Assembly: GCA_031458775.1 (NCBI GenBank)
Contig: JAVKJV010000004.1
Coordinates: 34,398 to 98,397, forward strand
Direction: 5' to 3'
DNA: 64,000 nucleotides
Source: Candidatus Fervidifonticultor quartus
Lineage (GTDB): Bacteria > Sysuimicrobiota > Sysuimicrobiia > Sysuimicrobiales > Humicultoraceae
Position numbers and translations under genes: made by a program. Below are positions 22,677-49,693 of this stretch, one piece after another. Below the pieces are notes generated by a model, which was not told where the DNA came from, did no database searches, and saw only the letters and a program-made list of their open reading frames with translations. Positions within the stretch are counted from its first letter, which is position 1, and each line of letters opens with the position of its first letter.

Positions 22677-23958
<1,282 letters not shown>

Positions 23959-23961
23959 CGT

Positions 23962-24453
23962 CTATGGGTACCGCTCGAGGATCTTCTCGATATCGCCGGC
24001 GGCGACCCGCGGCCACCGGTCCTCGTCCACGATCACCGACGGCGCTTCGTCGCACGCGGCCAGGCACTCCACGGTACGCAGCGTGAACCGGCCGTCGGTT
24101 GTGGTCCCCCCCGGCGCCACGCCCAGGCGCTCCTGGAGCCCGTTGACGACGGCCCGGCAGCCGTTGATCAGGCACGCCAGGTTCGTGCAGACCTGGATCA
24201 CGTGGCGGCCGACGGGCTCGAGGTACAGCAGCGAGTAGAATGATGCGACCGACGTCACCTCGGACACCGGCAGGTCGAGGAGACCGGCGACCTCCTCCAT
24301 CACGGCCGGGCTCAGGTAGCCGGCCTCGCGTTGGGCGACAAAGAGCGCCGGCAGCAACGCCGACTGCCGGTGCTCGTACAGCCCGGTCAGGCGACGGATC
24401 TCGGCGCGCGCGGCGTCGCTGAGCGTACGGCCAGCCCTGTGGTCCGGCGTCAC
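23962..24453 (-). CDS. nuoE: NADH-quinone oxidoreductase subunit E (24-kDa, [2Fe-2S])
   Basis: Thioredoxin-like 2Fe-2S subunit, with Cys residues in VCTNLACLINGC ... CLAACDEAP. Confidence 0.85.
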   Translation of the reverse strand: MTPDHRAGRTLSDAARAEIRRLTGLYEHRQSALLPALFVAQREAGYLSPAVMEEVAGLLDLPVSEVTSVASFYSLLYLEPVGRHVIQVCTNLACLINGCRAVVNGLQERLGVAPGGTTTDGRFTLRTVECLAACDEAPSVIVDEDRWPRVAAGDIEKILERYP

Positions 24454-25637
24454 CGATCCACGTCTCCGAGCACGATGTCGATGCTGGCGATGGCCACCAC
24501 GACGTCCGATACAAACCCCTTGTACACCATCACCGGAAGCGCCTGGAGATTGTTGAACGATCCCGAGCGCACGCGTACGCGAACCGGCCGATTGCTTCCG
24601 TCACTCACGACGTAGTAGCCCTTCTCGCCGCGCGGCGCCTCGACCGCGGCGTACACCTCGCCGACCGGCGGGTGAATCCCCTCGCTCACCAGCTTGAACT
24701 GGTGGATGACCGCCTCCATGCTTCGCACCAGCTCGTCCCTCGGGGGCAGGGCGACCTTCCGGTCGTCCACGATCCAGGGACCGCCGGGCAGGCGGTCAAG
24801 CGCCTGGAGGATGATCCGGCGGCTCTGCCGCATCTCCTCGAGCCGGATCAGATACCGGTCGAAGGCGTCACCATTCCTGCCCAGCGGCACGTCGAACTCG
24901 TACTGCTCGTAGCCGCTGTACGGGAATGCCTTGCGCACGTCGTAGTTGATCCCCGATCCGCGCAGGATGGGGCCCGTGCACCCGTAGGCCAGCGCGTCCT
25001 CGGGCGGCAGCACCGCGATCCCCTCGGTACGCTTCCGCCAGATCAGATTGTCGGTCAGCAGTCGGTCGTACTCGTCGATGCGCGCCGGCAGCCGGTCCAT
25101 CAGCGACCGCACCCGCGCCTCGAACCCGTCGGGCAGGTCCCACTGCATCCCGCCGATCCGCAGGAAGCCGTGCATCATGCGCTGCCCCGTCACGCTCTCC
25201 AGGATATCGAGGATCTCCTCGCGGTCCTGAAAACAATAGATGAAGACGCTGGTGACGTTGAGGTCGATCGCGCTGCTACCCAGCCACACGAGATGGCTGG
25301 CGATCCGCGACAGTTCCGAGAGGATGACGCGCGCCGCCTGCGCCCGCGGGGGCGGCGTGACGTCGAGCAGCTTCTCGACGGCCAGCACGTAGGCCGTCTC
25401 CTCGATGAACGTCGCCAGGTACTCGATGCGCGCCGGAAAGACGATGTTCTGGTGGTAGGTGCGAAACTCCATCTCCTTCTCGAACCCGGTGTGGAGGTAT
25501 CCGATGACCGGCTGGCAGCCCAGGATGACCTCTCCCTCGAGATCGAGGATCAGCCGCAGCACGCCGTGGGTAGACGGGTGCTGGGGTCCCATGTTGATTG
25601 TGATGGTCTCGGTTCGGACCTCGGGCATCGTGCTCAC
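24450..25637 (-). CDS. nuoD: NADH-quinone oxidoreductase subunit D (49-kDa)
   Basis: 395 aa, with N-terminal MGPQHPSTHGVLRL, typical of NuoD. Confidence 0.9.
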   Translation of the reverse strand: MSTMPEVRTETITINMGPQHPSTHGVLRLILDLEGEVILGCQPVIGYLHTGFEKEMEFRTYHQNIVFPARIEYLATFIEETAYVLAVEKLLDVTPPPRAQAARVILSELSRIASHLVWLGSSAIDLNVTSVFIYCFQDREEILDILESVTGQRMMHGFLRIGGMQWDLPDGFEARVRSLMDRLPARIDEYDRLLTDNLIWRKRTEGIAVLPPEDALAYGCTGPILRGSGINYDVRKAFPYSGYEQYEFDVPLGRNGDAFDRYLIRLEEMRQSRRIILQALDRLPGGPWIVDDRKVALPPRDELVRSMEAVIHQFKLVSEGIHPPVGEVYAAVEAPRGEKGYYVVSDGSNRPVRVRVRSGSFNNLQALPVMVYKGFVSDVVVAIASIDIVLGDVDR

Positions 25638-25690
25638 GCCGTGCGTTCTCCCAGGGCGCCCGCGATCACGCGCGACGCGGGCTGCGCCGC

Positions 25691-29193: not shown

Positions 29194-29776
29194 GAGGCGC
29201 GGCCTGGCTGGGCATCGCCTTGAAGGATCCCGACCATGCCGTGGATGATGCGCGCGGTGACGCCCCAGATCACGTGCGGCGGGTAGTCGTAGAAGAGCAA
29301 GTCATACGGACGGCCCTCCCGCGTGACCTTCTCGATTCGCAGGTTCTTAGGATCGAGGAATACCGCCAGCGGGACCGTCAGGATTTCCGCAATCTCGTTC
29401 GGGTTGGGTCTCAGCGGCACCGGCCAGGGGATGAGCCCGACGTAGGGTGTGATCGCGAACCCTGAGACGACCGTCTCCACCTCGTCAAGGCGGCCCCAGA
29501 TCGCGACCTGATCGGGCGCCAGGCCGATCTCCTCATAGGTCTCCCGCAGGGCCGTGGCCTGCAGGTCGGTGTCGTCGGGTTCCTCGCCGCCGCCTGGGAA
29601 CGAGATCTGCCCCTTGTGCCGCTCGACGGTTTCGGTCCGCCGGGTCAGCAGGACCGTCGGCACCTCGCCCGCCCGGAACACCGGGATCAGGACCGCCGCC
29701 CGGCGATGCGCGTGCGGCGGCAGGTCGCGTGGCTGCCGCGCTGTGATACGCGCGCGCAAGCGCTCGAGCACGTCCA
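29190..29776 (-). CDS. NUDIX hydrolase (CoA pyrophosphatase-like)
   Basis: Nudix box GGGEEPDDTDLQATALRETYEEIG, preceded by a NudL-like motif (AAVLIPVF...LLTRR). Start set at the internal ATG (MDVLERL...). Confidence 0.7.
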
Positions 29777-29963
29777 TGCCGGTGTGTTGGCTGCAATCGT
29801 GCGCCTCTCCTGCCCTCGACGGGCAGCGGGCGGTCGGAGCCGGCAGCGGAGCCGCGGCCCCCGGGCCGCTAGATGTTGGGAGGGGTCCCGAAATCGAACA
29901 CAAGATGCGGGACCGCCGGCAGGAGTTCCCCCGCCGGCGCGGAAGCCTCCTCTGACCCCAGGG

Positions 29964-31484
29964 GGAAGGCCAATGCACCCACAGCTCGCCTCCGCAGACG
30001 GAACACCATCGCAGCGCCAACGCGACATCTACCTCCTCAGCCCCAGGCTCCTTCCCCCTGAGGTCATAGCCGTCGCCTTCGCGAAGACATCGCGGAGCCC
30101 GAAACCGTTTCGCGAGATTGCCGCCGAACTCACCGAAGCGCAGTCCAGCGAGTTCCATGAGAAGTGGGTGCTCGGATACGGCCACGCCTCAGTGGCCGAG
30201 CACGCGGTGTTGCACCTGGCCCTTGAGAACATCTCCCGGCTCGCGGTCGAGAGCCTGGAGAGCAATCGCCTGGCGTCCTATACCGAGAAGTCCACCCGCT
30301 ATCAGATCTTCGACACGTTCTATATCCCGCCGGCCGTGGCCGCGTCGAAGCACGCCGAGCGCTATGTCGCCACCTGCCGCCTGCTCTTCGAGACGTACCA
30401 TGCAAGCCTCGAGCCGGTGCGCCGGGTCATCGAGGCGTGGCACCCGCGGAAGGACGATGAAACCGACCGGGCGTACAACGCCCGGATCCGCTCCCGATAC
30501 GTCGACGTGTGCCGGTTCCTGCTGCCCTGCGCAACGGTGGCGAACGTCGGTATGACGGCAAATGCCCGCACGCTGGAGCATGCCATCGCCAAAATGCTCT
30601 CGCATCCGCTGGACGAGGTCCGGGAGATTGGCGCCGACGTCAAGCGCGTCGCCCAGACCGAAGTGCCGACACTGGTGAAGTACGCCAACCCAAGCCCGTA
30701 CATGATGGCAACCGCATCCGCGTTGGAGGCCGCGGCCCGCGCCGCAACAGCCGACGCCGACACGGCGACCGCACCGGACGACGCGGCGGCGGTCGTGCGG
30801 CTGGTGCACTACGACCGCGACGCGGAACTACGAGTCGTCGCCGCCTGCCTCTACCGACACGGCACACTCTCGTACGAGGCCGCCTGGCGCCGAGCGCAGG
30901 CCATGGCGCCGGCCGAGCGCACCACCATCATCGGTGAGGCGCTGGGACGCCTCGGCCGGCACGACACGCCGCTGCGAGAGATCGAGCACACGACCTACAC
31001 CCTGGACATCGTGTGCGACCAGGGCGCCTACTTCGACCTGAAGCGCCATCGCATGATGACGCAGAGCCCGCAGGCGCCGACTGTCGAGTTGGGCTACGCG
31101 GTCCCGCGCGCGGTCGACGAGGCCGGCCTCGGCCAGCGCTACCGCGACGCAATCGACGCCGCCACCGACGCTTACCACCTGATTGCCCGCGATCTGCCGC
31201 GAGAGGCCGCGTATCTGGTCACCAACGCCCACAACCGGCGCTTCCTGGCCACGATGAACCTCCGCGAGCTCTACAGCATGGTGCCGCTCCGCGCGCGCGA
31301 GGCCGGCCACTTCTCGTACCGTCGCACCGCGCTCCTCGTCTACGAGGCAGTGCGGGCGGTGCACCCGGCGCTCGCCGCGCACGTCCCATTCGGCTACGCG
31401 CCGCCGGCCGCGGCCGAACTCGAGGCGCGATTCTTCTCCGAGGTCGCGCGACGACCTGGAGCGGTCCCGGTCACGACCGGGTAG
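29964..31484 (+). CDS. thyX: FAD-dependent thymidylate synthase ThyX, double-length (tandem ThyX-fold) form
   Basis: First half carries GYGHASVAEHAVL (ThyX GHxSVxEH block). Second half carries LKRHRMMTQS (RHRx4-7S ThyX signature). ~506 aa from the ATG preceded by GGGGGAAGG. The upstream portion of the annotated ORF is Arg-rich and spurious. Confidence 0.7.
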   Translation, partial: GRPMHPQLASADGTPSQRQRDIYLLSPRLLPPEVIAVAFAKTSRSPKPFREIAAELTEAQSSEFHEKWVLGYGHASVAEHAVLHLALENISRLAVESLESNRLASYTEKSTRYQIFDTFYIPPAVAASKHAERYVATCRLLFETYHASLEPVRRVIEAWHPRKDDETDRAYNARIRSRYVDVCRFLLPCATVANVGMTANARTLEHAIAKMLSHPLDEVREIGADVKRVAQTEVPTLVKYANPSPYMMATASALEAAARAATADADTATAPDDAAAVVRLVHYDRDAELRVVAACLYRHGTLSYEAAWRRAQAMAPAERTTIIGEALGRLGRHDTPLREIEHTTYTLDIVCDQGAYFDLKRHRMMTQSPQAPTVELGYAVPRAVDEAGLGQRYRDAIDAATDAYHLIARDLPREAAYLVTNAHNRRFLATMNLRELYSMVPLRAREAGHFSYRRTALLVYEAVRAVHPALAAHVPFGYAPPAAAELEARFFSEVARRPGAVPVTTG

Positions 31485-34072: not shown

Positions 34073-34906
34073 TGATCTGCCCTCCTCCACACCGCGGTAG
34101 AAGTACCCCGGGAAGCGGCGTACCGCCTCGAGATCGATGTCCGCGTACAGGATGCCCTCGTCCTCGCCGAGAGTCTGGACGAAGCCCTCGGCGGTGTTGA
34201 TACCGCCAGCCTTGGTGCGGAACCATTCGCCAAGTTCCTCCAAGGTGGCCACGCGTGGCGGCACACAGACCGTGGTGTAACCTCCCGCCTTGGGAAAGCG
34301 CTCGACGACCCGATCGCCTTTCCGAAGGAGCAGCGAGCACGCTGCGATGTCCACGCCCACCACCGGGCGGCCGTACTCCATGTGCCGACCGACTACGGTC
34401 GCCGGGTACGCGGCGCCCAGGGCGAACCACCACGACGGGTTGAACACGATGTCGACGCCACCTTGTCGCAGAGCGTCGGCACCGTCCCTGAAGAACGCGA
34501 AGTCCGAGCAGATCACGATGCCCAGGCGCCCCACACGGGTGTCGAACACGTCGTAACCGCTCCAGGCAATCACGCCGCCGTCGATCTCGCCCTGGGTGGG
34601 GAAGTTCTTGCGCTGCCGGCCGATCACGCGACCGTCCGGACCGATGATCGTCCCTGTGTTGTACCAGCGGTCCCGCGTTCCCTCGATGAGCCCGGCGATG
34701 ACATGCAGCCCAAGCCGTGAGGCTGTGCGACACAGTTCTTCCTCTCCGACTCTGGGGTACAGCTCTGGGAAGCAGGCACAGTCGGTACCGGCGCTGGCGG
34801 CCTCCTCCAGAAGCTCGACGGCGTGACCGACGTCAGCGCCGCTCCACATGTCGTCGAACTCCACCGCGACCGGACGGGCCTGAATGGCCGCGACCCTGAC
34901 TCTCAT
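34070..34906 (-). CDS. carbon-nitrogen hydrolase family (nitrilase/amidase-like)
   Basis: CN-hydrolase catalytic-triad context: VAAIQ… (Glu region), RKNFP (Lys), and GIVICSDFAFF (Cys). Confidence 0.75.
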   Translation of the reverse strand: MRVRVAAIQARPVAVEFDDMWSGADVGHAVELLEEAASAGTDCACFPELYPRVGEEELCRTASRLGLHVIAGLIEGTRDRWYNTGTIIGPDGRVIGRQRKNFPTQGEIDGGVIAWSGYDVFDTRVGRLGIVICSDFAFFRDGADALRQGGVDIVFNPSWWFALGAAYPATVVGRHMEYGRPVVGVDIAACSLLLRKGDRVVERFPKAGGYTTVCVPPRVATLEELGEWFRTKAGGINTAEGFVQTLGEDEGILYADIDLEAVRRFPGYFYRGVEEGRS

Positions 34907-35817
34907 CGACCACCTCCCTGTCGCAGCTTCGGATCCAAAACCTCTCGCAGCCCATCGCCGAGCAAGTTGAAGCCGAGCACCGCCACCATGATGGCCAGCC
35001 CGGGGAACACAACGAGCCAGGGCGCAATCGTCATGTACTGCCGTCCGCGGCTGATCATGCCGCCGAGGGTCGGCGCGGGCGGCTGCGTGCCCAGCCCAAG
35101 GAAACTCAGCCCGGCCTCAACAAGGATCACGATCGACAGATTCAGTGTCGCGGTGACAATCAGCGGCGGCACGACGTTTGGCAGGACATGCGTGAACGCG
35201 ATCCGGCGCATCGACGCCCCCAGCGCAACCGCAGCCTGGACATAATCCATTGGGCGGGCCGCCAGGGTGACGCCGCGCGCCATCACGGCGAACTGTGGCA
35301 TGGTCAGCAGCGTGATCGTCAGGACGAGGTTGCGCAGGCTGGGCCCGAGGGCGGCGACGATCGCAATCGCGAGGAGAATGGCCGGGAACGCGAACAGGAT
35401 GTCGAACGCCCGCATGGCGAGCAGGTCGACCAGCCCGCCTGCCAGGCCGATCGCGACGCCCAGGGGTACGCCGGTCGCCGCAGCCAGGCTCACCGACGAG
35501 ACCGCGGCGAACAGCGAAGTGCGCGCGCCGTTCAGCACGCGGCTCGCGACGTCGCGGCCAAGCTCGTCGGTCCCGAAGGGAAAGTCCACTGTCGGTGGCC
35601 TCAGTTCTTCCCCTGGGTGCAGCGCGGTGGGACTGCGTACCGTCAAGACTGGAGTCAGGAGGCCCACAACCGCCAGGACGACCACCAACCCGCCGCCCAC
35701 GGACACCGACCAGTTGCGCAGCAGCCCGCGCCACCGCGTCGAGCGCACCGCCGTGTCACCGGCCGGCCACCTCCCAAGCGCGGTCGCGGATCTAGCCATA
35801 GGAGATCCGGGGGTCAA
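34903..35817 (-). CDS. peptide/nickel ABC transporter permease (DppC/OppC-like)
   Basis: BPD_transp_1 permease with EAA-like loop (…ARPMDYVQAAVALGAS…), 6 TM. Confidence 0.8.
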   Translation of the reverse strand: MTPGSPMARSATALGRWPAGDTAVRSTRWRGLLRNWSVSVGGGLVVVLAVVGLLTPVLTVRSPTALHPGEELRPPTVDFPFGTDELGRDVASRVLNGARTSLFAAVSSVSLAAATGVPLGVAIGLAGGLVDLLAMRAFDILFAFPAILLAIAIVAALGPSLRNLVLTITLLTMPQFAVMARGVTLAARPMDYVQAAVALGASMRRIAFTHVLPNVVPPLIVTATLNLSIVILVEAGLSFLGLGTQPPAPTLGGMISRGRQYMTIAPWLVVFPGLAIMVAVLGFNLLGDGLREVLDPKLRQGGGR

Positions 35818-36742
35818 CGTAGCGGTAGAGTAGATCGATGACCAGGTTGATCAACACCGCGTTGGCGGTCAGAAAGAGAATGGCTCCCTGGATCACCGTG
35901 TAGTCCCGCTGATAGATCGCGTTGACCACCAGCCGTCCAATCCCGGGCAACGCGAAGACCTCCTCGACGATCACCGCGCCGCCGATGAGCGCCACGAACT
36001 GGATGCCGCTGGCGGCGATGACAGGGATCAACGCGTTCGCCAGAGCGTGCCGGAGCGCCACGCGGCGCTCTGCAAGGCCCTTGGCCCTCGCCGTCCGTAC
36101 GTAGTCCGCGCTCAAGACCTCCAGCATGCTCGCCCGCGTGTAGCGTAACAGGATGGCCGAGATTGCGGCGCCCAGCGCGAGGGCGGCCGGCAGCATCTGG
36201 CCGATACTGCGCCACGGCGCCGCGAAGAACGACACATAACCCAGCGTCGTGATGCCCGGCGCGTACCGCGCGCCGAGCACGATCAAGACGGTCCCGAGGA
36301 AGAACGCCGGAGCCGAGATGAACAGTAGCGACCCGACCCGTATGACCGCCTCGAGCCCGCGGCCTCGCCCGGTCACAGAAAACACGCCCAGAGGTATGCC
36401 CAGCAGGGTCGCCGTGACCATGGACATGACCGTCAACTGCACGGTCACCGGATAGGCGCGCGCAATCTCCTGAGCGACAGGCGCGCCGTGCACGAGCGAG
36501 CGTCCGAGGTTCCCTCTCAGCACCGCTCCAAGCCAGTGCAGGTATTGCACGGCCAGCGGCCGGTCCAAGTGTAGCGCCTGGATGATCGCCTCGCGGTTCT
36601 GCTCGTTCTGGCTCGCGGTGATGCCCAGAAGCACGGTCACAAGATCACCCGGGATCAGGTGAATGATCGCAAACGACACCATAGAGATCCCCAGCAGCGT
36701 GGGCACCAGCAGCAACAGGCGCTTAACGACGTAGGCGCGCAT
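35792..36742 (-). CDS. peptide/nickel ABC transporter permease (DppB/OppB-like)
   Basis: Typical DppB N-terminus (VVKRLLLLVPTLLGISMVSFAIIHLIPGD) and C-terminus (YVDPRI). Confidence 0.8.
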   Translation of the reverse strand: MRAYVVKRLLLLVPTLLGISMVSFAIIHLIPGDLVTVLLGITASQNEQNREAIIQALHLDRPLAVQYLHWLGAVLRGNLGRSLVHGAPVAQEIARAYPVTVQLTVMSMVTATLLGIPLGVFSVTGRGRGLEAVIRVGSLLFISAPAFFLGTVLIVLGARYAPGITTLGYVSFFAAPWRSIGQMLPAALALGAAISAILLRYTRASMLEVLSADYVRTARAKGLAERRVALRHALANALIPVIAASGIQFVALIGGAVIVEEVFALPGIGRLVVNAIYQRDYTVIQGAILFLTANAVLINLVIDLLYRYVDPRISYG

Positions 36743-36754
36743 CGGCGAGGCGTG

Positions 36755-38368
36755 TCACCGGTCGAGCCAGACCTGCTTGAAGAAGTGCCGGCTGCGGCTC
36801 CCGGGCTGCGCTCCGGGCAGCGACACGTATCCCCTCACGTTCTCGTGCAGTAGCTCGACCGCGCCATCGGCGTAAGGATGAAGCATGTAGGCCTGGTCGG
36901 CGATGTGCCGCTGCAGTTGTTGATAGATCGCAATCCGCTTGTTGCGGTCAAGCTCCGTGCGGCCCTGCTCCAAGAGCTGATCGACGAACGGGTCGCGGAA
37001 CCTGCCGAGGTTGATCGCCGAGTCGCTGTGGTAGATGTCGTAGACATGAGCGTCGGGATCCGGCTGCCAGACGGTGGGAATCATGCTCATGCCGTCGTAG
37101 GTGGTTCGCACGAATGCCGTCAGGAGCTGACCCCACTCGCCCTGGCGGAGAGTGACACGGATCCCCGCGGCCGCAAGCTGCTCGCGCATGACCTCGCCGG
37201 CCCTCACGGTGAACGGGAATCGCGGGGGCACGTCGAGGGTCGTGTCGATCCCGTTCGCATAGCCGGCCTCGGCCAACAGCTGTCGCGCCAGCTGGGGGTT
37301 GTGCTGATAGTACGGGAGCCCTTTCTCGTCCCCGCTGTACCCGAAGGGCGCGTCGCACGGAGGAATCTTGGTCGTGATGGCACCCTTTCCGCGGCGAACC
37401 GCACGGATAATCTCCCGCCGGTTGATGCCCACGCTGACCGCCCGGCGCACGCGCACATCGTTGAACGGCGGCTTCGTCTGGTTGAACACGAGCGTGTGCT
37501 GGGCGCAGTACCCCTTGGGAGGCAGGACCGCGACGCCCGGCATGGACTTCACCTGCTCGTCGACGAGAGGATCGACCGACCACGTGTACTGAATCGTGCC
37601 GGTGCGGAGCGCGGCCAGACGCGCCGCCTCGTCGGGGATAATCCGGTACTCGACGCCATCGAGGTACGGCAGCCCCGACTCGTAGTACCGGGGGTTCCGC
37701 TTCAGGACCACGACGTTCTCGGGCACAAACCGCTCCAGCATGAACGGGCCCGTGCCGGACGCGGTTTGTTGCAGGTCACCGGACTTCTCGACGACATCGC
37801 GAGGTACGATCGCGGAGTAGTGCGGGGTCCCAAGGTACGAGAGGAACGGCGCAAATGGCCGGCGTGTTGTGAACCGGACCGTGTACTTGTCCGGGGTCTC
37901 AATGCGCTCGATGATCAGCCAGATCGACCGCCATGGCGATGCGGTACGCTGGTCGGCCATCCGCTCAAAGGTGAACTTGACGTCATCCGACGTGAGTTCG
38001 CGGCCGTGGTGAAACTGGACGCCGCGCCGCAACCTGAACACGAACGTCGTCGAGCCGGATACCTCATAGCTCTCCGCCAAGTCGGGCACCAAACGGTTGG
38101 CGGGGCTGCGCCGCAAGAGGTTGGAGTACACGTGTTCTGAGACCATCCACGTGTGGGCCGCCGCGGACTTCGCCGGGTCCAGCCCCGGAGGGCTAACGTC
38201 CGAGCCAACCACCAAGACGCCGCCTCGTTTGGGCGGGCCGCCCGGCGCCGCCAGCGCGATGCGGTCGAACTGCGACAGCGAGAGCAGCGTCACGCCCGCG
38301 CCCTTGAGGAAGGTCCGCCGGTCGATCAAGCCGTGCACCACACGCTTCTGACGTTCTCGGTCGTTCAC
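36755..38368 (-). CDS. ABC transporter substrate-binding protein, family 5 (DppA/OppA-like), Tat signal
   Basis: Twin-arginine signal (RRTFLKGAGV) and an SBP_bac_5 core (…VRFHDG/ VQFHHGREL…). Confidence 0.8.
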   Translation of the reverse strand: MNDRERQKRVVHGLIDRRTFLKGAGVTLLSLSQFDRIALAAPGGPPKRGGVLVVGSDVSPPGLDPAKSAAAHTWMVSEHVYSNLLRRSPANRLVPDLAESYEVSGSTTFVFRLRRGVQFHHGRELTSDDVKFTFERMADQRTASPWRSIWLIIERIETPDKYTVRFTTRRPFAPFLSYLGTPHYSAIVPRDVVEKSGDLQQTASGTGPFMLERFVPENVVVLKRNPRYYESGLPYLDGVEYRIIPDEAARLAALRTGTIQYTWSVDPLVDEQVKSMPGVAVLPPKGYCAQHTLVFNQTKPPFNDVRVRRAVSVGINRREIIRAVRRGKGAITTKIPPCDAPFGYSGDEKGLPYYQHNPQLARQLLAEAGYANGIDTTLDVPPRFPFTVRAGEVMREQLAAAGIRVTLRQGEWGQLLTAFVRTTYDGMSMIPTVWQPDPDAHVYDIYHSDSAINLGRFRDPFVDQLLEQGRTELDRNKRIAIYQQLQRHIADQAYMLHPYADGAVELLHENVRGYVSLPGAQPGSRSRHFFKQVWLDR

Positions 38369-38567: not shown

Positions 38568-39488
38568 GTGCGATTCGCGACCGTTCAAGTGGGCGGCAAG
38601 GCTCATCTCGGACTCCTCGATGGGGAGCACGTGTTCCTCTTTGCGCCGCTGGCGCGCTTGGCCGCGCGCGGCAGGATCCGCGGCCGCGGCGCCTCCCCAG
38701 TCCCCGATGACCTCCTCGCCTTCATCGAACACGGATCGCTGGCGCAGGCACGCGCGGCGCTGGCGCTCGGCCGCAGCCTGCTCAAAGCCGGCAAGGCCCG
38801 CGATGTGATCCTGCCGGCATCGAAGGTCAGGTTCCTGGCCCCCATCCCGCGGCCGCGCAAGAACATTGTCTGCCTGGGTCGCAACTACGCCGAGCACGCC
38901 AAGGAGAGCGGCGGCCAGGTCCCGACGGTGCCCATCTTCTTCACCAAGCCGCCGACGTGCGTGGTCGGCCCGGGGGCGGCCGTCGTGCATCACCCCGTGA
39001 CCGAGAAACTCGACTACGAGGTCGAGTTGGCCGCGATCATCGGCCGTCGCGGCCGCGACATCCCGGAGTCACGCGCGCTCGCCCATGTCTTCGGCTACAC
39101 GATCATGAACGACGTCACCGCGCGCGACCTGCAGCGCCGGCATGAGCAGTGGTTCAAGGGCAAGTCGCTGGACACGTTCGCGCCGATGGGCCCGGTGGTC
39201 GCGCACAGGTCGGCGATCCGGGACCCGCAGAATCTCGTCCTCCGGCTTCGGGTCAATGGCGAGCAACGTCAGCACGCGAGCACGCGCGGCATGGTTTTTC
39301 CGGTCGCCCGGATCATCAGCGTGCTCTCGGCCGGCATGACGCTCGAGCCCGGCGACATCATTGCGACCGGCACGCCCGAGGGCGTCGGCATGGGGATGAA
39401 CCCGCCGGTGTGGCTGAAGCCGGGAGATGTCATGGAAGCCGAGATCGAGGGGATCGGCGTGCTGCGGAACCCGATCGTCGCGCCCTAG
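38568..39488 (+). CDS. fumarylacetoacetate hydrolase (FAH) family protein
   Basis: FAH-fold motifs (…YEVELAAIIGR…; …GDIIATGTPEGVG…). GTG start after GGAGG. Confidence 0.75.
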   Translation: MRFATVQVGGKAHLGLLDGEHVFLFAPLARLAARGRIRGRGASPVPDDLLAFIEHGSLAQARAALALGRSLLKAGKARDVILPASKVRFLAPIPRPRKNIVCLGRNYAEHAKESGGQVPTVPIFFTKPPTCVVGPGAAVVHHPVTEKLDYEVELAAIIGRRGRDIPESRALAHVFGYTIMNDVTARDLQRRHEQWFKGKSLDTFAPMGPVVAHRSAIRDPQNLVLRLRVNGEQRQHASTRGMVFPVARIISVLSAGMTLEPGDIIATGTPEGVGMGMNPPVWLKPGDVMEAEIEGIGVLRNPIVAP

Positions 39489-39507
39489 CGCCGGCCGCGG
39501 GGCAGCG

Positions 39508-39942
39508 TCACGGCGCGAGCGGCGCCAGCAGCGGGGCGACGCCCTCGAGGAAGCGCCGGTCGTCCGCCGTGAAAGCGGCGGGCCGATCACTGTCGATGTC
39601 GATTTCCCCGACCACCTTGCCGTCGGCGACGATGGGCACGACGATCTCGGACTTCGTCGAGAGGAAGCACGCCAGGTATCGGGGGTCGCGGCTCACGTCG
39701 TCGACGACCTCGGTCTGGCCTGAGGCCGCCGCCGCGCCGCACACGCCCTTCCCGATGGGAATGCGCGTGTGCTCGGTCGCGGCCGGGCCTTTCCAGGGCC
39801 CGAGGACGAGGTCCGGTCCCTCCACCCAGTAGATCCCCACCCACGAGTAGTGGGGGAACCGATCGTAGAGGTAGTCCACGACCGCCTGGGCTCCCTGCCG
39901 CGCGAGGTGACGAACTTCCTGGTGCGCGCGCACGTAGTCCAT
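39508..39942 (-). CDS. GAF-domain protein, free methionine-(R)-sulfoxide reductase (fRMsr/MsrC)-like
   Basis: 144-aa GAF with the fRMsr-type GKGVCG motif and a Cys-containing core. Confidence 0.6.
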   Translation of the reverse strand: MDYVRAHQEVRHLARQGAQAVVDYLYDRFPHYSWVGIYWVEGPDLVLGPWKGPAATEHTRIPIGKGVCGAAAASGQTEVVDDVSRDPRYLACFLSTKSEIVVPIVADGKVVGEIDIDSDRPAAFTADDRRFLEGVAPLLAPLAP

Positions 39943-40161
39943 TCCGACATGCCTCCTGGAGGGCCCCAGTGGGGCACTAACTCGTCATTATACCGAAGCC
40001 GGGGAACCGGGCGACGTACCGCTCGTCGCGCCGGGGCAACCGCACGTACGAGTGCTAGGCGTGACGTGACATGTTTGATACATTACAGGACTAAGTAGTG
40101 GTCGAATCGCGGTCGGCCCCCGGTGCAGCATACCGGCCGCCATCCGACTGGAGGTTGGGAG

Positions 40162-40593
40162 ATGACGATCAGGATCCTGCTGGCCCTCGGGCTGGTGCTC
40201 ATCACGGCGTTGGGCTTTGCGGCGTCGGTTCCGGCGCAGACACCTCAGAGAGTCGTTGAGGTCACGATGACCTCGTTCAAGTTCGAGCCCAGCCAGATCA
40301 CGATCAACGAAGGCGAGCGCGTGGTCATTCGCCTGCGGAACGCCGATCAGGCCGGTCGGCCTCATGACATTGCCTCCCGCTACTTCGTGGATCTCCCGCT
40401 CACGGTTCGCGGCGACGGCCGGCAGGCGGTCGAGGAGGGCCGGAAGTACGTGCGGGTCGACGCGGGCAAGCAGGCCGAGTTCGAGTTCGTGGCCGCCAAC
40501 CGCGGCTCATACGCGTTTATCTGCAGCGTGTTCCTGCACTCGGCCGCCGGCATGACCGGTGCGATCTTCGTCAAGCCGCAGGGCGCACAGTAG
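40162..40593 (+). CDS. secreted cupredoxin-like (type-1 copper) protein, paralog 1 (Met axial ligand)
   Basis: Signal peptide, then candidate T1Cu ligands His (RPHDIAS) and C-x4-H-x4-M (FICSVFLHSAAGM). Confidence 0.55.
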   Translation: MTIRILLALGLVLITALGFAASVPAQTPQRVVEVTMTSFKFEPSQITINEGERVVIRLRNADQAGRPHDIASRYFVDLPLTVRGDGRQAVEEGRKYVRVDAGKQAEFEFVAANRGSYAFICSVFLHSAAGMTGAIFVKPQGAQ

Positions 40594-40616
40594 TCCGGAG
40601 CCCGGGCCGCGTCATC

Positions 40617-41060
40617 GTGGAGGGGATCATGTACGCAAGGTTGGCACTGGTGGGGACGCTGGTCGCGGCCGTGACGCTGGGAATGGTCGCCGCCGCTCCG
40701 GCACAAACCACCCCGCCGAAGAGGGTCATCGAGGTGTCGATGACGTCGTACAAGTTCGAGCCCAGCCAGCTTCGGGTGACCGAAGGCGAGACGGTGGTCA
40801 TCCGGCTCAAGAACGTCGATCCGGCCGGCCGGCGTCACAACATGGCGTCGGCGTACTTCGCCACGATTCCGTTGACCCTGCGCGGCGACGGCGAAGAGGG
40901 CACGAACGAGGGCCGCAAGTACGTCGTGGTCTCCGCGGGCAAGGAGGCCGAGTTCGAGTTCGTCGCGCGCAACCGCGGCTCGTACGCGTTCATCTGTAGC
41001 CTGTTTGATCACGCCGCGCGCGGCCAGACCGGCACGTTGATCGTGCAAGCGCCGCAATAG
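40617..41060 (+). CDS. secreted cupredoxin-like protein, paralog 2 (Gln at axial position)
   Basis: ~60% identical tandem duplicate of the upstream gene. Ligand pattern His (RRHNMAS) and C-x4-H-x4-Q (FICSLFDHAARGQ). Confidence 0.55.
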   Translation: MEGIMYARLALVGTLVAAVTLGMVAAAPAQTTPPKRVIEVSMTSYKFEPSQLRVTEGETVVIRLKNVDPAGRRHNMASAYFATIPLTLRGDGEEGTNEGRKYVVVSAGKEAEFEFVARNRGSYAFICSLFDHAARGQTGTLIVQAPQ

Positions 41061-41229
41061 GGCCTGGACTCCCGGTCTTGCGGGCGGCAACGGGGGTGAG
41101 GGGGATGGAGGGCGGTCGGTCGACCGCCCTCCATGGTTTGCGACGGGCAGGGAACACGCAGGTGGCGCCGTAGTGTTTCCGGCGACCCGCACGTGTCCGA
41201 GGGTACCTGACACCGAAGGGGGGAGTTCG

Positions 41230-42801
41230 GTGACGCACAGCCCATTCAGGCTCGGGATCATCGTGGTGCTGATCGCCACGGCGTTCTCGTGGCAGAGCCC
41301 GCCGGCCGGCGCGCAGGCCGCGCCCAGGCAACTGCGCATCGCGGTGGGCATCGACGCCGACACGCTCGATCCGGTCGGCGGCACGACCACGACTGTGAAC
41401 AACATGGTCGACTACTTCTACGAAACCCTGGTGGACGTCGAGACGACGCCGGGTGAGATCAAGCCCAAGCTCGCCACGCGCTGGCAGATTTCGCGCGACG
41501 GGCTCACCTACACCTTCACCCTGCGATCAGGGGTGCGATTCCACGACGGGACGCCGATGGACTCGGCCGCGGTGAAGTTCACGCTCGAGCGACTGCTCGA
41601 CCCGCGGGTGCGGAATCCCAACCGGCATCTGTTCGCGGCGATCAAATCGGTGGAGACGTCGGGCGACCTCAACGTGCGTCTGACGCTGAGCCAGCCGAGC
41701 CCCATCCTGCTGGCGAGCCTGGGGACCACCACCGCGGCGATCCTCTCGCCAGCCGCGGTGCAACGCGCGGGCGACCGGTTCTCCGTAGCACCGACGGGCG
41801 CGGGCACCGGCCCCTACATCTTCAAGGAATGGCGCCGGGGTGACAGCATCACCGTCGAGCGGAACCCGAACTATTGGGGACAGAAGCCGTCGTTCGAGGA
41901 GGTCCAGTTCCGCGTCGTGCCCGACGCCGGCACGCGGCTGACGCAATTGCTGGCCGGCGACGTTCACATGGCGATGCTGCCGCCGGCGCCCGACGTCAAG
42001 GGCCTGCGCCGCAATCCGCGCGTGACCGTGGTCGAGGCGCCCACGGACCGCACGGTCTTCCTGGTGCTGAACAATCAGTGGGGTCCGTTCAAGGACGTGC
42101 GCGTGCGCCAGGCGATGAACTACGCGGTCAACAAGAAGGCGATCCTGGCCAGCGTGCTGTTCGACCTCGGCACCGTTTCGGTCTCGCCCTGTCCGCCGAT
42201 GATGTTTGGCGGTATCCCGGTGCAGGAGGGCGGGTGGCCGTACAATCCGATCAAGGCCAAACAGTTGCTGGCCGAGGCCGGCTACAAGGATGGCTTCGAG
42301 GTGAATTTCTTCGCACCGACGGGCCGGTACATCCAGGACTTCCAGTTCGCGCAGGCGATCAGCGCGCAGCTCCGCAACGTCGGGGTCCGCGCGAACGTGA
42401 GCACCATGGACTGGCCGTCGTACGTGGCGATGATCCTGACGCCGCCGGACCGGACGCGCGTCCAGATGATCGTGCTGGGCTGGGCCTGGCCCGTGCTGGA
42501 TTGCGACGGCGCGCTGTACGGTCAGTTCCATTCGGGCGTCGCCCACCCGCCGACCGGGCTGGGACCAGCATACTACAAGAACGAGAAGGTGGACGCGCTG
42601 CTGACCGAGGCACGGCAGACGAATGACCCAAACAAGCGGAAGGCGCTATACAAGGAAGCGCAGGAGCTGATCTGGAATGACGCACCGTGGGTCTTCCTGT
42701 GGACGCAGAAGTGGTACGTGGCCACGGTGAAGAACCTCGAGGGCGTCAAGGTCACACCGATCGAGAAGTGGCACGCGATCTACGCGACGTGGAAGCCGTA
42801 A
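41230..42801 (+). CDS. ABC transporter substrate-binding protein, family 5 (DppA/OppA-like)
   Basis: Signal peptide plus SBP_bac_5 core. Paralogous to the 36755-38368 protein (e.g. LRSGVRFHDGTP vs LRRGVQFHHGRE). GTG start after GGGGGGA. Confidence 0.8.
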   Translation: MTHSPFRLGIIVVLIATAFSWQSPPAGAQAAPRQLRIAVGIDADTLDPVGGTTTTVNNMVDYFYETLVDVETTPGEIKPKLATRWQISRDGLTYTFTLRSGVRFHDGTPMDSAAVKFTLERLLDPRVRNPNRHLFAAIKSVETSGDLNVRLTLSQPSPILLASLGTTTAAILSPAAVQRAGDRFSVAPTGAGTGPYIFKEWRRGDSITVERNPNYWGQKPSFEEVQFRVVPDAGTRLTQLLAGDVHMAMLPPAPDVKGLRRNPRVTVVEAPTDRTVFLVLNNQWGPFKDVRVRQAMNYAVNKKAILASVLFDLGTVSVSPCPPMMFGGIPVQEGGWPYNPIKAKQLLAEAGYKDGFEVNFFAPTGRYIQDFQFAQAISAQLRNVGVRANVSTMDWPSYVAMILTPPDRTRVQMIVLGWAWPVLDCDGALYGQFHSGVAHPPTGLGPAYYKNEKVDALLTEARQTNDPNKRKALYKEAQELIWNDAPWVFLWTQKWYVATVKNLEGVKVTPIEKWHAIYATWKP

Positions 42802-42885
42802 GACCCGGGGCGTCTGACGATCTGGTGGGGGCCGCGGCCGGCGGGCCGCGGCCCCCACTCAGCCCCTAGCTTCCTTGCCCCACCC

Positions 42886-43812
42886 ATGACGCTCGGCTCA
42901 TATCTCGTCCGCCGCATCGGCGTCGCCCTCCCCACTCTCGTCGGGGTCACGCTCGCGATCTTCTTCATGGTCCGCCTCATCCCGGGCGATCCGGCGAGGG
43001 TGATCCTTGGCCTGCAGGCCTCGGACGAGGAGGTCGTGCGCATCCGGCGCGAACTCGGCCTCGACCGGCCGATCTACGTGCAGTACGGTCGCTTCATCGG
43101 CCGCCTGGTGCGGGGTGACCTCGGGATCTCGGCCGTCACCCGGGCGCCGGTGATCGAGGAGGTCGCCACGCGGCTGGGGCCGACCGCCCAGCTCGCGGTC
43201 TCGAGCATCGTCGTCGCGACGGCGGTCGGGCTCGGCGCCGGCATCGTCTCGGCCACCCGGCAGTACACGGCCATCGACTACCTGGTCATGACCGTGGCGC
43301 TGTGCGGGGTCTCGATCCCGGTGTTCTGGCTGGGGATCATGCTCATGCTGGTGTTTTCGGTGTACCTGCACTGGCTGCCCGCAGGCGGCTACGGCGGCCC
43401 GGCGCACTTCGTGCTACCGACGATCGCGCTGGCGGCGTTCTCGATCGCGATCATTGCGCGCATGACACGCAGCAGCCTGCTGGAGACGTTCAACCAGGAC
43501 TACGTGCGCACGGCGCACGCCAAGGGTGCGCGCCCCCGCGCGGTGGTCCTGCGGCATGCGCTCAAGAACGCGCTGATCCCGGTGATCACGGTGATCGGCC
43601 TGCAGTTCGGCGCGCTGCTGGGCGGTGCGATCCTGACCGAGACGACCTTCGCCTGGCCCGGGATGGGCCGCCTGCTGGTGAACGCGATCACGTCGCGCGA
43701 CTACCCGGTCGTCCAAGGGATCGTCCTCACGTTCGCCGTGATCTTCACGGTGGTCAACCTGATCGTCGATCTCCTCTACGCGTATGTCGACCCGCGCATC
43801 CACTACGGTTAG
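42886..43812 (+). CDS. peptide/nickel ABC transporter permease (DppB-like)
   Basis: Typical DppB N-terminus (YLVRRIGVALPTLVGVTLAIFFMVRLIPGDP) and C-terminus (YVDPRIHYG). Confidence 0.8.
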   Translation: MTLGSYLVRRIGVALPTLVGVTLAIFFMVRLIPGDPARVILGLQASDEEVVRIRRELGLDRPIYVQYGRFIGRLVRGDLGISAVTRAPVIEEVATRLGPTAQLAVSSIVVATAVGLGAGIVSATRQYTAIDYLVMTVALCGVSIPVFWLGIMLMLVFSVYLHWLPAGGYGGPAHFVLPTIALAAFSIAIIARMTRSSLLETFNQDYVRTAHAKGARPRAVVLRHALKNALIPVITVIGLQFGALLGGAILTETTFAWPGMGRLLVNAITSRDYPVVQGIVLTFAVIFTVVNLIVDLLYAYVDPRIHYG

Positions 43813-43816
43813 GTGG

Positions 43817-44674
43817 GTGCCCGAGATCGCGGTGCGCCCGCGGGCGGGTGTGTTCCGCCGCCTGGGCCGCCATCGTACGGCGCTCGTCGGGCTGGCGGTG
43901 CTGCTCGGATTCGTGGTCGCCACCGTCGCGGCGCCGATCGTCCTGCCGTACGATCCCACGGAGGCCGACTTCGAGAAGGTGCTGCGGCGGCCCTCACCGG
44001 CGCATCCCTTCGGCACCGATCAGCTCGGCCGCGACCTCTTCACTCGCGTGGTGTACGGCGCACGCGTGTCGTTCCTGATCGGCGTGCTCGCGGTGGGACT
44101 GAGCGCCGCCATTGGTGTCCCGATCGGCCTGGTGTCGGGCTATCACGGCGGCACGGTCGACCTGGTCGCGCAGCGCGCCGTGGACCTCATGCTGGCGTTC
44201 CCCGGGTTCTTGCTGGCCCTCACGCTCATCGCGGTGCTCGGCGTGGGGGTCACTAACGTCGTCGTCTCCGTAGGGCTGGCCACGGCGCCCGTGTACGTGC
44301 GCCTGGTGCGCGGGGTTGCGCTCTCGGTGAAATCGCAAGTCTACATCGAGGCGGCCCGGGCCTGCGGTGTCCCGGAACGCCGGATCATCGGCCGTCACGT
44401 CCTCCCCAACTGCCTGCCGCCGGTGATCGTGCAATCCACCCTGCAGCTCGGCGCAGCGATCCTCACCGCGGCGGGCCTCGGCTTCCTGGGGCTTGGGGTG
44501 AAGCCGCCGACGCCCGAGTGGGGTACCATGTTGGGCGAGGGCCAGACGTACCTGTTCTCGTCGTGGTACATCGCGACGTTCCCGGGGCTGGCAATCTTCC
44601 TCAGCGTGCTGGCGTTCAATCTGTTGGGTGACGGTCTACGCGACGCGCTCGATCCTCGCATGAAGCTGGGCTAG
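43817..44674 (+). CDS. peptide/nickel ABC transporter permease (DppC-like)
   Basis: DppC-like with C-terminal LGDGLRDALDPR. GTG start immediately after the dppB-like stop. Confidence 0.8.
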   Translation: MPEIAVRPRAGVFRRLGRHRTALVGLAVLLGFVVATVAAPIVLPYDPTEADFEKVLRRPSPAHPFGTDQLGRDLFTRVVYGARVSFLIGVLAVGLSAAIGVPIGLVSGYHGGTVDLVAQRAVDLMLAFPGFLLALTLIAVLGVGVTNVVVSVGLATAPVYVRLVRGVALSVKSQVYIEAARACGVPERRIIGRHVLPNCLPPVIVQSTLQLGAAILTAAGLGFLGLGVKPPTPEWGTMLGEGQTYLFSSWYIATFPGLAIFLSVLAFNLLGDGLRDALDPRMKLG

Positions 44675-47636: not shown

Positions 47637-48312
47637 AGCGAAGGGCGCGCGCCGAGAGCGTGTGCGGCGCTTCGATCGCCGCCTCGGGCCACTCGACCCG
47701 AATCAACGCGGCCAGACCTTCAAGGTGGGCCCGTGCGACACCAGCGGACACCCCTGCCGGACACCACGCGCCAAACAGCGCGGCCTGAGATGCATCATGC
47801 AACCGGGTACGGTAGTCCGGCCCATAGAGCACGGAGGCGATCACACCCTCGGCGTCGCGGACGACCATGTCGCCGGGCGCAATCGCGTGCTCTTTGCCGT
47901 TGAGTTTCGTGTACCGCTCGCCGTCGCGGCCGATGTCCACGAGGAGCGGGCCCCGCAGCGCGTCGAGGTCGTGTCCCGAGGTCAGGACCAGTGTGTCGAT
48001 CTCAGCGGCAAACATCGCCTGGACCAGGGCCGAGGGACTCTCGATCGGCCTGCCGCCCAGGATCGTCTTCACCTGGTGGATCACTGGGTACCGCTGGCCA
48101 TAGCGCTTGAAGTACGCGGCGTACGCCCGGCCCACCGGGTTGGCATCAGGCGGCTCCGTTGCGTGACGCGCCCGCAGACGGGTCTCGACCGCGCGCGTGG
48201 GTCCGGCCAGCGCCGCGGCCCGAGGCCGGTTAGGGCAGCCCCGGACGATGAGGACGCCGAACACGCCTTCGGGGAGGCGATCTCCGAACTGCGGGGACAG
48301 CACGACCTCCAT
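47614..48312 (-). CDS. B3/4-domain protein (PheT B3/B4-like, stand-alone)
   Basis: ~230 aa from the internal ATG (MEVVLSPQFG…), with a B3_4-like core (…HQVKTILGGRPIES…LTSGHDLD…). Confidence 0.45.
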   Translation of the reverse strand: MEVVLSPQFGDRLPEGVFGVLIVRGCPNRPRAAALAGPTRAVETRLRARHATEPPDANPVGRAYAAYFKRYGQRYPVIHQVKTILGGRPIESPSALVQAMFAAEIDTLVLTSGHDLDALRGPLLVDIGRDGERYTKLNGKEHAIAPGDMVVRDAEGVIASVLYGPDYRTRLHDASQAALFGAWCPAGVSAGVARAHLEGLAALIRVEWPEAAIEAPHTLSARALRSSSGTPP

Positions 48313-48361
48313 GATCGGGCCCTCCCTCCGGCATCCGGCGGACCCGCGCCGAAACGCCCCC

Positions 48362-49693
48362 CTAGACCGCCGAAGCCCAGGCTGCCTGCGCCGATAGCTC
48401 GGCGATGAGCGCCCGGCCGGCCCGGTCCATGAATGCGGCGATCTCCGCGGGCGTCCTCGGATCGGCTTCGTCGGCCTTCGGGGTCTTGACACCAGTGGCG
48501 TAGTACTCCAGGAACGGCGAGATGCTCTTGAAGGGATAGATGACGTAGACCTTCTTGCCCGTGGTATGCGCGTGAATCATCTCTGAGAGCACGCCAAACG
48601 ACATCTGGCTCGTCGGATAGAAGACGACGTTCATGTCCGACTGATCGATCAGCCGCAGGTCGCGCACCACGGTCGCGCGTCCCAGTTGCAACCGCGTCCG
48701 GTCGTCCAGACCCGCGGCCCACGCGCGCAGCCCGTCGAGTGATCCGGCCCACTCTAGGATCTCCGCCCGCTGCGCCTCGGAGAACTGCTGCTCGAACTCC
48801 CGGCTGCCGATCTTCGCGAACGCGGCGGCCTCTTCGTCCTTGACCGACAACGGGTCGAACACGACGAAGTGCTCTCGCAACCGATGCCCGAAGTCCCTCG
48901 CCATCTCGATGAGCTGCCAGAGCCCTTCGCGGCGCAGATTGGTGATGGGATAGCCTAGGTAGATCCGGGGCCTTTTAAAGCAGATGAGATCGAAGAGAGT
49001 GCTCGTCGGCTCGTCGTGCGCAATCAGGTAGTGGGGCACGCGCTCGTAGGCTGCGAACATCTTCGAGAGGAAGACTTCCTGCTCTTGCCACGCGATCAGC
49101 TCGTCGGCATCGAGCCGTCCCCGCCACTGGTCGGTCTCGTGCAACCGCCGGTGGATCTGGTAGACGCTGTCGATGATGGTGACGTAGAAGATGCCCTCGG
49201 GCCGGACCGCCGGCGCCAGGCGCAGACCTGGCAGTGTCTCCTGCACGGCGGTCTCCTCGGGCGCGTGCATACGCCGGCGTGTCTCGTCGAACAGGAGCTT
49301 CAGGTAGTGCGTATCGAGCCCGGGAATGAGATGGCTCTTCCACCAGAAGCAGGCGTGCGTGACCAGGATCGTGCAGAGATCGGGTTCCCACAGCGCGTCG
49401 TCGTTGACGACTTCGGTGAACGCGATGGCACGCAGCTCCTGCAGGGCCTCGGGCGACATGTCCAGGATGGTCTCGGTCCTGACGTCCATGCCCAGGTCGC
49501 GGGCGCGGTCGAGCATCAACCGGCCCATGTCGATCGTACGCAGGCGCCTGATCGGCGACGTCCACCGGCCGTCGCGTATCTCCTGTGCGATGCGCCGCGT
49601 GCCCTCGTCGATCAGGCGGACGAGGTAACCCGGCGCGCCGCCCGCGTCGCGGAGTTTGCCGGTCCCGGAAATGCCCGTGGCGATGACAATCAT
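48362..49693 (-). CDS. uncharacterised protein with N-terminal P-loop-like motif (kinase/NTPase-like; family unresolved)
   Basis: 443 aa starting MIVIATGISGTGKL (GxxxxGK, Walker-A-like). No confident family match by eye. Lies immediately downstream of cofE and fno, with short gaps. Confidence 0.45.
   Translation of the reverse strand: MIVIATGISGTGKLRDAGGAPGYLVRLIDEGTRRIAQEIRDGRWTSPIRRLRTIDMGRLMLDRARDLGMDVRTETILDMSPEALQELRAIAFTEVVNDDALWEPDLCTILVTHACFWWKSHLIPGLDTHYLKLLFDETRRRMHAPEETAVQETLPGLRLAPAVRPEGIFYVTIIDSVYQIHRRLHETDQWRGRLDADELIAWQEQEVFLSKMFAAYERVPHYLIAHDEPTSTLFDLICFKRPRIYLGYPITNLRREGLWQLIEMARDFGHRLREHFVVFDPLSVKDEEAAAFAKIGSREFEQQFSEAQRAEILEWAGSLDGLRAWAAGLDDRTRLQLGRATVVRDLRLIDQSDMNVVFYPTSQMSFGVLSEMIHAHTTGKKVYVIYPFKSISPFLEYYATGVKTPKADEADPRTPAEIAAFMDRAGRALIAELSAQAAWASAV

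Follow-up and report, generated by a model that had tools for sequence, protein, structure and literature searches.

A tandem of predicted exported cupredoxins with methionine and glutamine at the axial copper position, behind a conserved direct-repeat element, in Candidatus Sysuimicrobiota

Introduction

The tuning of blue copper by its axial ligand is a textbook problem that has mostly been studied with engineered mutants. Stellacyanin is the classic plant case of an axial Gln: its His2-Cys-Gln site (His46, Cys89, His94 and Gln99 in the cucumber protein) has a potential that is lowered relative to Met sites. The loop spacing Cys-x4-His-x4-X is common to azurin and stellacyanin. In the bacterial auracyanins A and B, the axial ligand is Met.

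Bacteria are already known to have type-1 copper with a Gln ligand. Auracyanin D of Chloroflexus aurantiacus has an axial Gln, a green site and a potential of +90 mV, the lowest known for type-1 copper (PMC10804444), and in the NirK of Thermus scotoductus a Met-type T1Cu feeds a His2-Cys-Gln T1Cu with the same His-x4-Gln spacing that we describe below (PMC6400189). In nitrosocyanin, the N-terminal His is replaced by Glu (PMC10804444). The EfeO/FtrB-type proteins have no His-His-Cys triad; they possess an Asp/His copper site, a Glu-rich iron site and a linkage to EfeU/FtrC (PMC11966278).

Here, we analyse two adjacent cupredoxin genes in a 64-kb stretch of DNA from Candidatus Fervidifonticultor quartus, which we call the window when referring to its whole length. 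The initial annotation singled out the pair for having Met in one protein and Gln in the other. The pair is real, though such a set is not new in bacteria, as Chloroflexus has auracyanins A and B (Met) together with D (Gln). Like auracyanin D, the second window protein is bacterial, consists of one cupredoxin domain, has an axial Gln and shares its genome with a Met-type paralog. It differs from stellacyanin and the phytocyanins in its bacterial origin, in lacking a glycosylated or GPI tail, and in having one Cys, which makes the phytocyanin disulfide impossible. In Thermus scotoductus NirK (T1CuN in PDB 6hbe), the two sites are domains of one enzyme with a catalytic T2 copper, whereas the window encodes two separate small proteins without T2 ligands. 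Unlike nitrosocyanin, both window paralogs keep the N-terminal His.

Results

Gene structure and N-termini

The pair lies within two open reading frames on the + strand (40123-40593 and 40617-41060). Alignment to homologue N-termini and the positions of two GGAGG ribosome-binding sites, read from the sequence, favour an ATG start at 40162 for paralog 1 (GGAGG at 40150-40154 on the + strand, 7 nt before the ATG) and at 40629 for paralog 2 (GGAGG at 40619-40623 on the + strand, 5 nt before the ATG). With these starts, the genes occupy 40162-40593 and 40629-41060 on the + strand, are separated by 35 nt, and each encode a putatively exported cupredoxin of 143 aa, with an axial Met in paralog 1 and an axial Gln in paralog 2. 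The proteins are 61% identical over 143 aa (E = 3e-62). This agrees with the roughly 60% identity first reported; the accompanying size of about 150 aa and spacing of 23 nt are revised here, the shorter spacing presupposing a GTG start at 40617.

Both N-termini open with a few positively charged residues, including an Arg at position 3 or 4, and continue into a hydrophobic segment that closes with a conserved PAQT. In the AlphaFold models of both paralogs, the hydrophobic segment forms a low-confidence helix away from the beta-sandwich. The segment may be a Sec signal peptide or a membrane anchor; neither a lipobox Cys nor a twin-Arg motif was found in the N-termini of either paralog.

Fold and copper ligands

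Both proteins score above the cutoffs of two Pfam families, PF13473 (46.2 bits for paralog 1 and 41.7 bits for paralog 2; cutoff 27) and PF00127 (36.5 and 30.2 bits, respectively; cutoff 21.2). Structure prediction, which the initial annotation had proposed as a check, yielded confident cupredoxin models of canonical topology for both paralogs (pLDDT of about 96-98 in the cores and 89 for the paralog 1 model). The fold is a Greek-key beta-sandwich in which the Cys closes a strand, while the second His and the Met or Gln sit in the loop preceding the last strand.

An upstream His followed by Cys-x4-His-x4 and an axial Met or Gln had been proposed as the ligands, and these motifs match the sequence exactly. 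In paralog 1, the set is His68 and Cys121-x4-His126-x4-Met131 (FICSVFLHSAAGM), encoded on the + strand by the codons at 40363-40365, 40522-40524, 40537-40539 and 40552-40554. In paralog 2, it is His70 and Cys123-x4-His128-x4-Gln133 (FICSLFDHAARGQ), with + strand codons at 40836-40838, 40995-40997, 41010-41012 and 41025-41027 (CAG for the Gln), giving the stellacyanin-type axial Gln with its Cys-x4-His-x4-Gln spacing. When 35 members of the family are aligned, none departs from His68, Cys121 or His126 (numbered as in paralog 1), and the axial column contains M, Q, E or H. In pairwise and profile alignments, Met131 coincides with the axial Met of both plastocyanin and the Hyphomicrobium nitrite reductase (HdNiR), and the Gln column with that of the Geobacillus nitrite reductase, in agreement with the original assignment of this position as axial. 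The Pfam scores, the fold models and the invariant His/Cys/His likewise bear out the description of both proteins as cupredoxins with a full type-1-style ligand set. The 35-sequence alignment also shows a conserved surface Glu-x-Glu on the strand before the Cys strand. Each protein has a single Cys in its whole sequence and no C-terminal extension.

Comparison with described families

The best structural matches are all copper cupredoxins, and the top Foldseek matches of paralog 1 are AcoP, auracyanin B and PDB 4hcf. Auracyanins A and B are among both the sequence and the structure matches; by sequence, the window proteins fall outside the auracyanin clade. AcoP (PDB 7z3b) differs in its axial Met, its extended loop and its acidophile origin, and is only 18-22% identical. 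For the Bacillus anthracis protein named 'Cupredoxin_1' (PDB 4hcf), we found no published function and no mention in the literature. The closest structural neighbours (4hcf, AcoP, nitrosocyanin and FtrB) are not established electron shuttles, an observation that counts against a carrier role.

The top NCBIfam match is CopI (NF051440), at 37.9 and 33.6 bits compared to a cutoff of 280, and the best match covers only about residues 16-64 (the N-terminal ~45 residues). With a score so far below the cutoff and a partial length, membership of CopI is ruled out. Membership of the phytocyanins is ruled out by the lack of any Pfam Cu_bind_like match at E <= 1, the single Cys and the missing C-terminal extension, and membership of the EfeO/FtrB type (Cup-I/Cup-II) by the invariant His-His-Cys triad and the lack of an iron permease in the loci.

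The tandem in related genomes

An NCBI MAG protein with the label Armatimonadota has the same sequence as paralog 2. The related loci come from Ca. Fervidifonticultor and its relatives in Ca. Sysuimicrobiota / CSP1-3, a lineage of hot springs and soils to which NCBI gives the name Armatimonadota. The locus order is kept: FAH hydrolase, GAF protein, cupredoxin(s), peptide-binding protein, two permeases, ExoD, glyoxalase and Obg-like GTPase. The Met-then-Gln tandem recurs at this syntenic position in several Ca. Sysuimicrobiota MAGs (the window, L004/5/6, L010, L013 and L016). At other loci, the second gene carries an axial His (L007/8/9, L015, L028 and L034; CSLFDHASRGH), so that a tandem with Met first and Gln or His second is present in at least seven independent loci. 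An axial Glu is found in P0022 and P0040.

The single-copy loci that we recovered (L011, L012, L014, L017 and L018/L019) all have the Gln form, and in no recovered genome does a Met loop occur alone. Genome L001 has one chimeric gene, in which the N-terminal half derives from a Met copy and the C-terminal half from a Gln copy; it retains the Gln-type copper loop. In a neighbour-joining tree (no bootstrap), all Met copies form one clade nested among Gln sequences. Since every recovered single copy has Gln and the Met copies group in one nested clade, Met is read as the derived state within the family. The initial annotation had spoken of a Met-to-Gln swap; for this family the direction is reversed. 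From these sequences, Gln appears to be the core, widespread state and the Met copy a later duplicate with a changed axial ligand. The axial change from CAG to ATG takes two substitutions.

The two lineages also differ around the copper site. Their second-sphere residues are His-Asp and x-His-Ser in Met copies, and His-Asn and Asp-His-Ala in Gln copies. Both copies are under purifying selection, with a dN/dS of 0.16-0.42 in both lineages, values that are approximate because synonymous sites are near saturation. As Gln is freely replaced by His or Glu in orthologues, the axial residue may do something other than finely tune the potential.

The opposite holds outside the family. In an exhaustive profile search, only seven representative clusters reached E <= 1e-30, and the axial residue in the best 149 representatives is Met in 121 and Gln in 8 (an automated motif count in which one of the 8 is spurious). 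On this count, Gln appears uncommon and family-specific, and which residue the family had at its root is uncertain.

A direct repeat upstream of the pair

The AT-rich core of the leader (40062-40108) holds the only 35-nt segments in the 64 kb with a GC content of 37% or less, and the most AT-rich 35-mer (40066-40100) has 37% GC. At the 80-nt scale, the leader has 55% GC, compared to a mean of 68.6%, and is tied with a coding stretch. Its earlier description as the only markedly AT-rich stretch nearby is thus accurate at the 35-nt scale, while at the 80-nt scale its GC content is only modestly low.

Aligning the upstream regions of 13 loci revealed a direct repeat of two hexamers that are 11 bp apart, start to start. 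In the window, it reads GTGACA-tgttt-GATACA (40066-40082, + strand), is located 96 nt upstream of the ATG, and is a candidate -35 region and/or activator operator. Elsewhere, the hexamers read GTGACA-N5-TTTACA or TTTACA-N5-TTTACA, compared to GTGACA-N5-GATACA in the window. A G(G/C)TA(C/T) motif follows 5-9 nt beyond the repeat in the 13 loci. The pattern KTKACA-N5-KWTACM occurs once in the window, where 0.04 occurrences are expected by chance. It is present exactly once in 23 of 25 loci, always intergenic and upstream of the first cupredoxin gene. The distance from the repeat to the first cupredoxin start is 72-119 nt in the 13 loci where it was measured, and the other matches have comparable offsets. 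The repeat is also found in distant ANGP1-type loci, whose neighbours differ entirely. One common element lies upstream of the pair, with no separate element before the second gene.

An exact 18-mer taken from the relatives matches 11 metagenome contigs, and eight of these carry the cupredoxin locus (seven with a cupredoxin directly downstream and one with an FAH-GAF locus that ends at the contig edge). The other three contigs are low in GC and are probably chance matches. The same metagenome scan with the 18-mer found no further regulon members.

The feature that the initial annotation proposed as a promoter or operator was a palindrome, ACATGTttgatACAT (40069-40083), of which only the 6-nt ACATGT is self-complementary; the region also has 4-nt ATGT/ACAT arms. 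Relatives read ACACGT in place of ACATGT. A palindromic operator is thus ruled out, as the dyad is weak and not conserved, and the conserved feature is the direct repeat. The leader does contain a conserved, gene-specific cis-element, as had been proposed, though it is not the palindrome.

A sigma-70 consensus scan of 39400-41400 found no promoter, and a recognisable -10 is absent in the high-GC genomes. In L017, the first hexamer together with a TAGTAT located 17 nt downstream makes a good sigma-70-like promoter. We conclude from its conservation, rather than from a consensus match, that the direct-repeat region is the putative promoter region of the cupredoxin unit. Sites of OmpR/PhoB-type activators consist of direct-repeat hexamers about one helical turn (11 bp) apart that overlap the -35. 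The element may tentatively be considered a candidate operator of this type, the likelier alternative being a plain -35 box with a conserved spacer: the geometry fits, but the element is not linked to a regulator gene and its first hexamer may be no more than a -35 box. There is no sign of a leader RNA element. The 5' UTR folds no more stably than its shuffles (z = +0.57), and an Rfam scan of 39900-41300 returned only sub-threshold noise.

The 3' boundary and the neighbouring genes

A hairpin with a perfect 13-bp stem and a 4-nt loop (41105-41134, + strand) begins 45 nt past the paralog 2 stop and is followed by GGUUUG. The RNA fold of 41055-41180 has a free energy of -64 kcal/mol (z = -3.4), and 0 of 200 shuffles were as stable. 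The hairpin fails a strict T-run terminator scan (39400-41400). Based on its folding, it is probably a transcription stop that divides the pair from the downstream ABC locus. In most relatives, the site of the hairpin is occupied by a conserved convergent gene for a secreted protein of 130-138 aa and unknown function, which is missing in the window and in L010. As this gene stands in between, the cupredoxins of those relatives are not co-transcribed with the transporter, and the hairpin suggests that the same holds in the window. An operon with the ABC transporter is rejected on the basis of the hairpin and of the convergent gene of most relatives.

The ABC locus comprises a substrate-binding protein (41173-42801) and two permeases (42886-43812 and 43784-44674). 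Its initial description as an ATPase-less peptide locus is correct: it has no ATPase gene, and the window has no in-frame ABC signature, its one LSGGQ match sitting in a gene that scores as an aldo/keto reductase. The unusual partnership that had been read into its position is reduced to adjacency by the hairpin, the convergent gene in relatives and the other neighbourhoods of some distant members. The best reading is that the two are simply neighbours, such loci being plentiful in this genome.

No copper, cytochrome c or terminal-oxidase gene was found among the Pfam-scanned genes, which include all those predicted within ~11 kb on either side, and no long ORF of the 64 kb has a CxxCH motif. 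Respiratory genes were found only in a complex I operon located 15-27 kb upstream. With no copper, cytochrome or oxidase gene nearby, the context names no electron-transfer partner.

Discussion

The gene structure, the fold, the conservation of the ligands and of the tandem, the purifying selection on both copies and the conserved cis-element are best explained, with a probability of about 0.6, by two co-expressed, exported mononuclear copper proteins that would differ in potential through their axial ligands. As part of this joint explanation, the two genes would form one bicistronic unit, driven by the conserved gene-specific promoter region and ended by the strong hairpin. Each protein would bind one copper with His-Cys-His in a trigonal plane and a fourth, axial ligand that would be the Met thioether in paralog 1 and the Gln amide oxygen in paralog 2. 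Judging from stellacyanin, auracyanin D and Thermus NirK, the lower reduction potential would belong to the Gln protein, along with a perturbed site that is either stellacyanin-like blue or green, while the Met protein would have a conventional blue site of higher potential.

Redox tuning and an electron-carrier role are plausible. The pair would then act as two soluble or membrane-tethered one-electron carriers of different potentials at the outer face of the cytoplasmic membrane, serving different partners or acting in series. In the Sysuimicrobiota lineage, coxABC (the aa3 oxidase) is ancestral, and some families have nirK or nosZ (PMC11604079). The aa3-type oxidase, NirK and NosZ are thus plausible candidate partners in the lineage, although nothing in the 64 kb names one.

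Nothing established is overturned by this locus, since Gln-ligated bacterial type-1 sites and sets of Met/Gln paralogs are already documented. What is new is descriptive: a narrow, uncharacterised Cupredoxin_1-type clade with Gln as its default and Met, His and Glu as natural variants, a conserved Met-then-Gln tandem, and a gene-specific direct-repeat element. Natural Met and Gln proteins that are ~60% identical and share one putative operon, with His and Glu orthologues and an origin in thermophilic uncultured bacteria, provide a matched comparison set, and they should be easy to express and compare. The cis-element is testable and is the first regulatory handle in an uncultured phylum without genetics. 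The proteins themselves are candidate soluble electron carriers for the respiratory and denitrification enzymes of the phylum.

Readings other than a co-expressed pair with different potentials were also weighed. The proteins could handle copper as periplasmic resistance, buffering or chaperone factors, as has been proposed for CopI, CupA or AcoP, with the element acting as a copper-responsive operator. The top NCBIfam match is indeed a copper-resistance cuproprotein, far below its cutoff as it is, and the element is dedicated and deeply conserved, unlike a housekeeping promoter. However, CopI membership fails (38 bits compared to the 280-bit cutoff), a His/Met-rich tract is absent, neither CopA, CusR nor any other copper gene is located nearby, and the full invariant His-Cys-His-X set is typical of redox sites. 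We consider copper handling unlikely.

A further reading treats the clade as a natural axial-ligand series (Gln, His, Glu and Met) on a near-constant cupredoxin scaffold under a dedicated, deeply conserved direct-repeat operator. The ancestral Gln/His/Glu form would have a low-potential or coordinatively flexible site, rather than being a plain shuttle, and would work in sensing, copper delivery or small-molecule redox, for example; the Met copy would have been recruited later as its electron-transfer partner. Taken as one joint claim, this series is rather doubtful.

The Gln/His/Glu paralog could instead have an accessible site and act as a small copper redox enzyme or sensor, resembling nitrosocyanin or an FtrB/EfeO ferroxidase, with the Met paralog as its electron partner. 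The axial position accepts Gln, His and Glu, all of them hard donors, the surface Glu-x-Glu before the Cys strand is conserved, and one family member is named 'EfeO-type cupredoxin-like' in UniRef. However, FtrB uses Asp/His without the His-His-Cys triad (PMC11966278) that is invariant in the window family, nitrosocyanin has a Glu for the N-terminal His (PMC10804444) where the window family does not, and the loci have no adjacent iron-transport genes (FtrC/EfeU). A role of this kind is very unlikely.

Even less probable is simple redundancy, in which the axial difference would be of little consequence and the duplicates would contribute to dosage or back-up, not to tuning. A single copy is all that many genomes have, and the Met/Gln chimera of L001 indicates that one protein can suffice. 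However, the Met and Gln lineages are each conserved with their own second-sphere residues, the Met copies are monophyletic, purifying selection acts on both copies, and the chimera and all single copies keep the Gln-type loop, so that the Met loop never stands alone.

A single functional unit with the adjacent ATPase-less peptide ABC transporter is largely excluded: the adjacency is conserved across the Sysuimicrobiota loci and a distant ANGP1-type locus has an SBP_bac_5 and permease set ~3 kb away, but the 13-bp hairpin follows gene 2, the convergent 130-aa gene intervenes in most relatives, the upstream element goes with the cupredoxin gene alone, L024 is without ABC genes in the 8 kb upstream on a contig that ends just past its cupredoxin, and the window has a second ATPase-less peptide ABC locus at 34.9-38.4 kb, indicating that such loci are simply common here.

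Axial-residue variants and a chimeric cupredoxin gene

Orthologues of the Gln paralog carry further residues at the axial position, the fourth copper-ligand position after His-Cys-His. Axial His (CSLFDHASRGH, codon CAC) occurs in the second cupredoxin gene of four related loci, L007 (6470–6901), L015 (2924–3358), L028 and L034, and axial Glu occurs in the homologous proteins P0022 and P0040 (HAWLGE and HASNGE). The Met-type partner of the axial-His form always belongs to one subclade, CAFFTHAxxGM. A full His-Cys-His scaffold with a natural axial His or Glu is unusual.

The lone cupredoxin gene of related locus L001 (6001–6432; GCA_031459855.1) is a chimera when compared with the tandem pair of L013 (4001–4989). 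Its nucleotides 1–180 are 97–100% identical to the L013 Met paralog, while nucleotides 181–432 are 87–100% identical to the Gln paralog, and the copper loop that it keeps is Gln-type. The chimera fits either unequal recombination between tandem copies or an assembly collapse.

Genes flanking the cupredoxins

In most related loci, a conserved secreted protein of 130–138 aa, with no Pfam match, is encoded convergently just 3′ of the cupredoxins (minus strand; L001:6453–6869, L007:6971–7363 and L005:6548–6940). The gene is absent from L010 and from the window, where the corresponding interval (41061–41172) holds a perfect 13-bp hairpin.

The region is flanked by two separate peptide-type ABC loci (34903–38368, minus strand; 41173–44674, plus strand), each encoding an SBP_bac_5 protein and two permeases. 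The ATPase gene is missing from both, and no in-frame LSGGQ-type ABC signature was found across the 64 kb. Their ATPase genes must lie outside this stretch, and the two loci may draw on a common set.

Other genes in the window

A complex I (nuo) cluster with NuoD-, NuoF-, NuoG-, NuoI-, NuoK- and NuoL/M-like genes (about 13100–25640, minus strand) shows that the organism has a respiratory chain, although this cluster does not directly neighbour the cupredoxin pair.

Three large ORFs have coding-like GC3: one of 755 aa (4968–7235, plus strand) with no Pfam family at E ≤ 1e-4, and two of 442 aa (48362–49693, minus strand) and 248 aa (47662–48408, plus strand) with none at E ≤ 1e-3. The C-terminal 60 residues of a 396-aa ORF (990–2183, minus strand) gave a near-threshold Hfq match (24.9 bits versus 27), and the remainder had no Pfam match. 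A 622-aa ThyX-family protein (29616–31484, plus strand), about twice the usual ThyX length, has two matched Thy1 stretches; its counterparts, conserved upstream in related loci, are 504–517 aa long.
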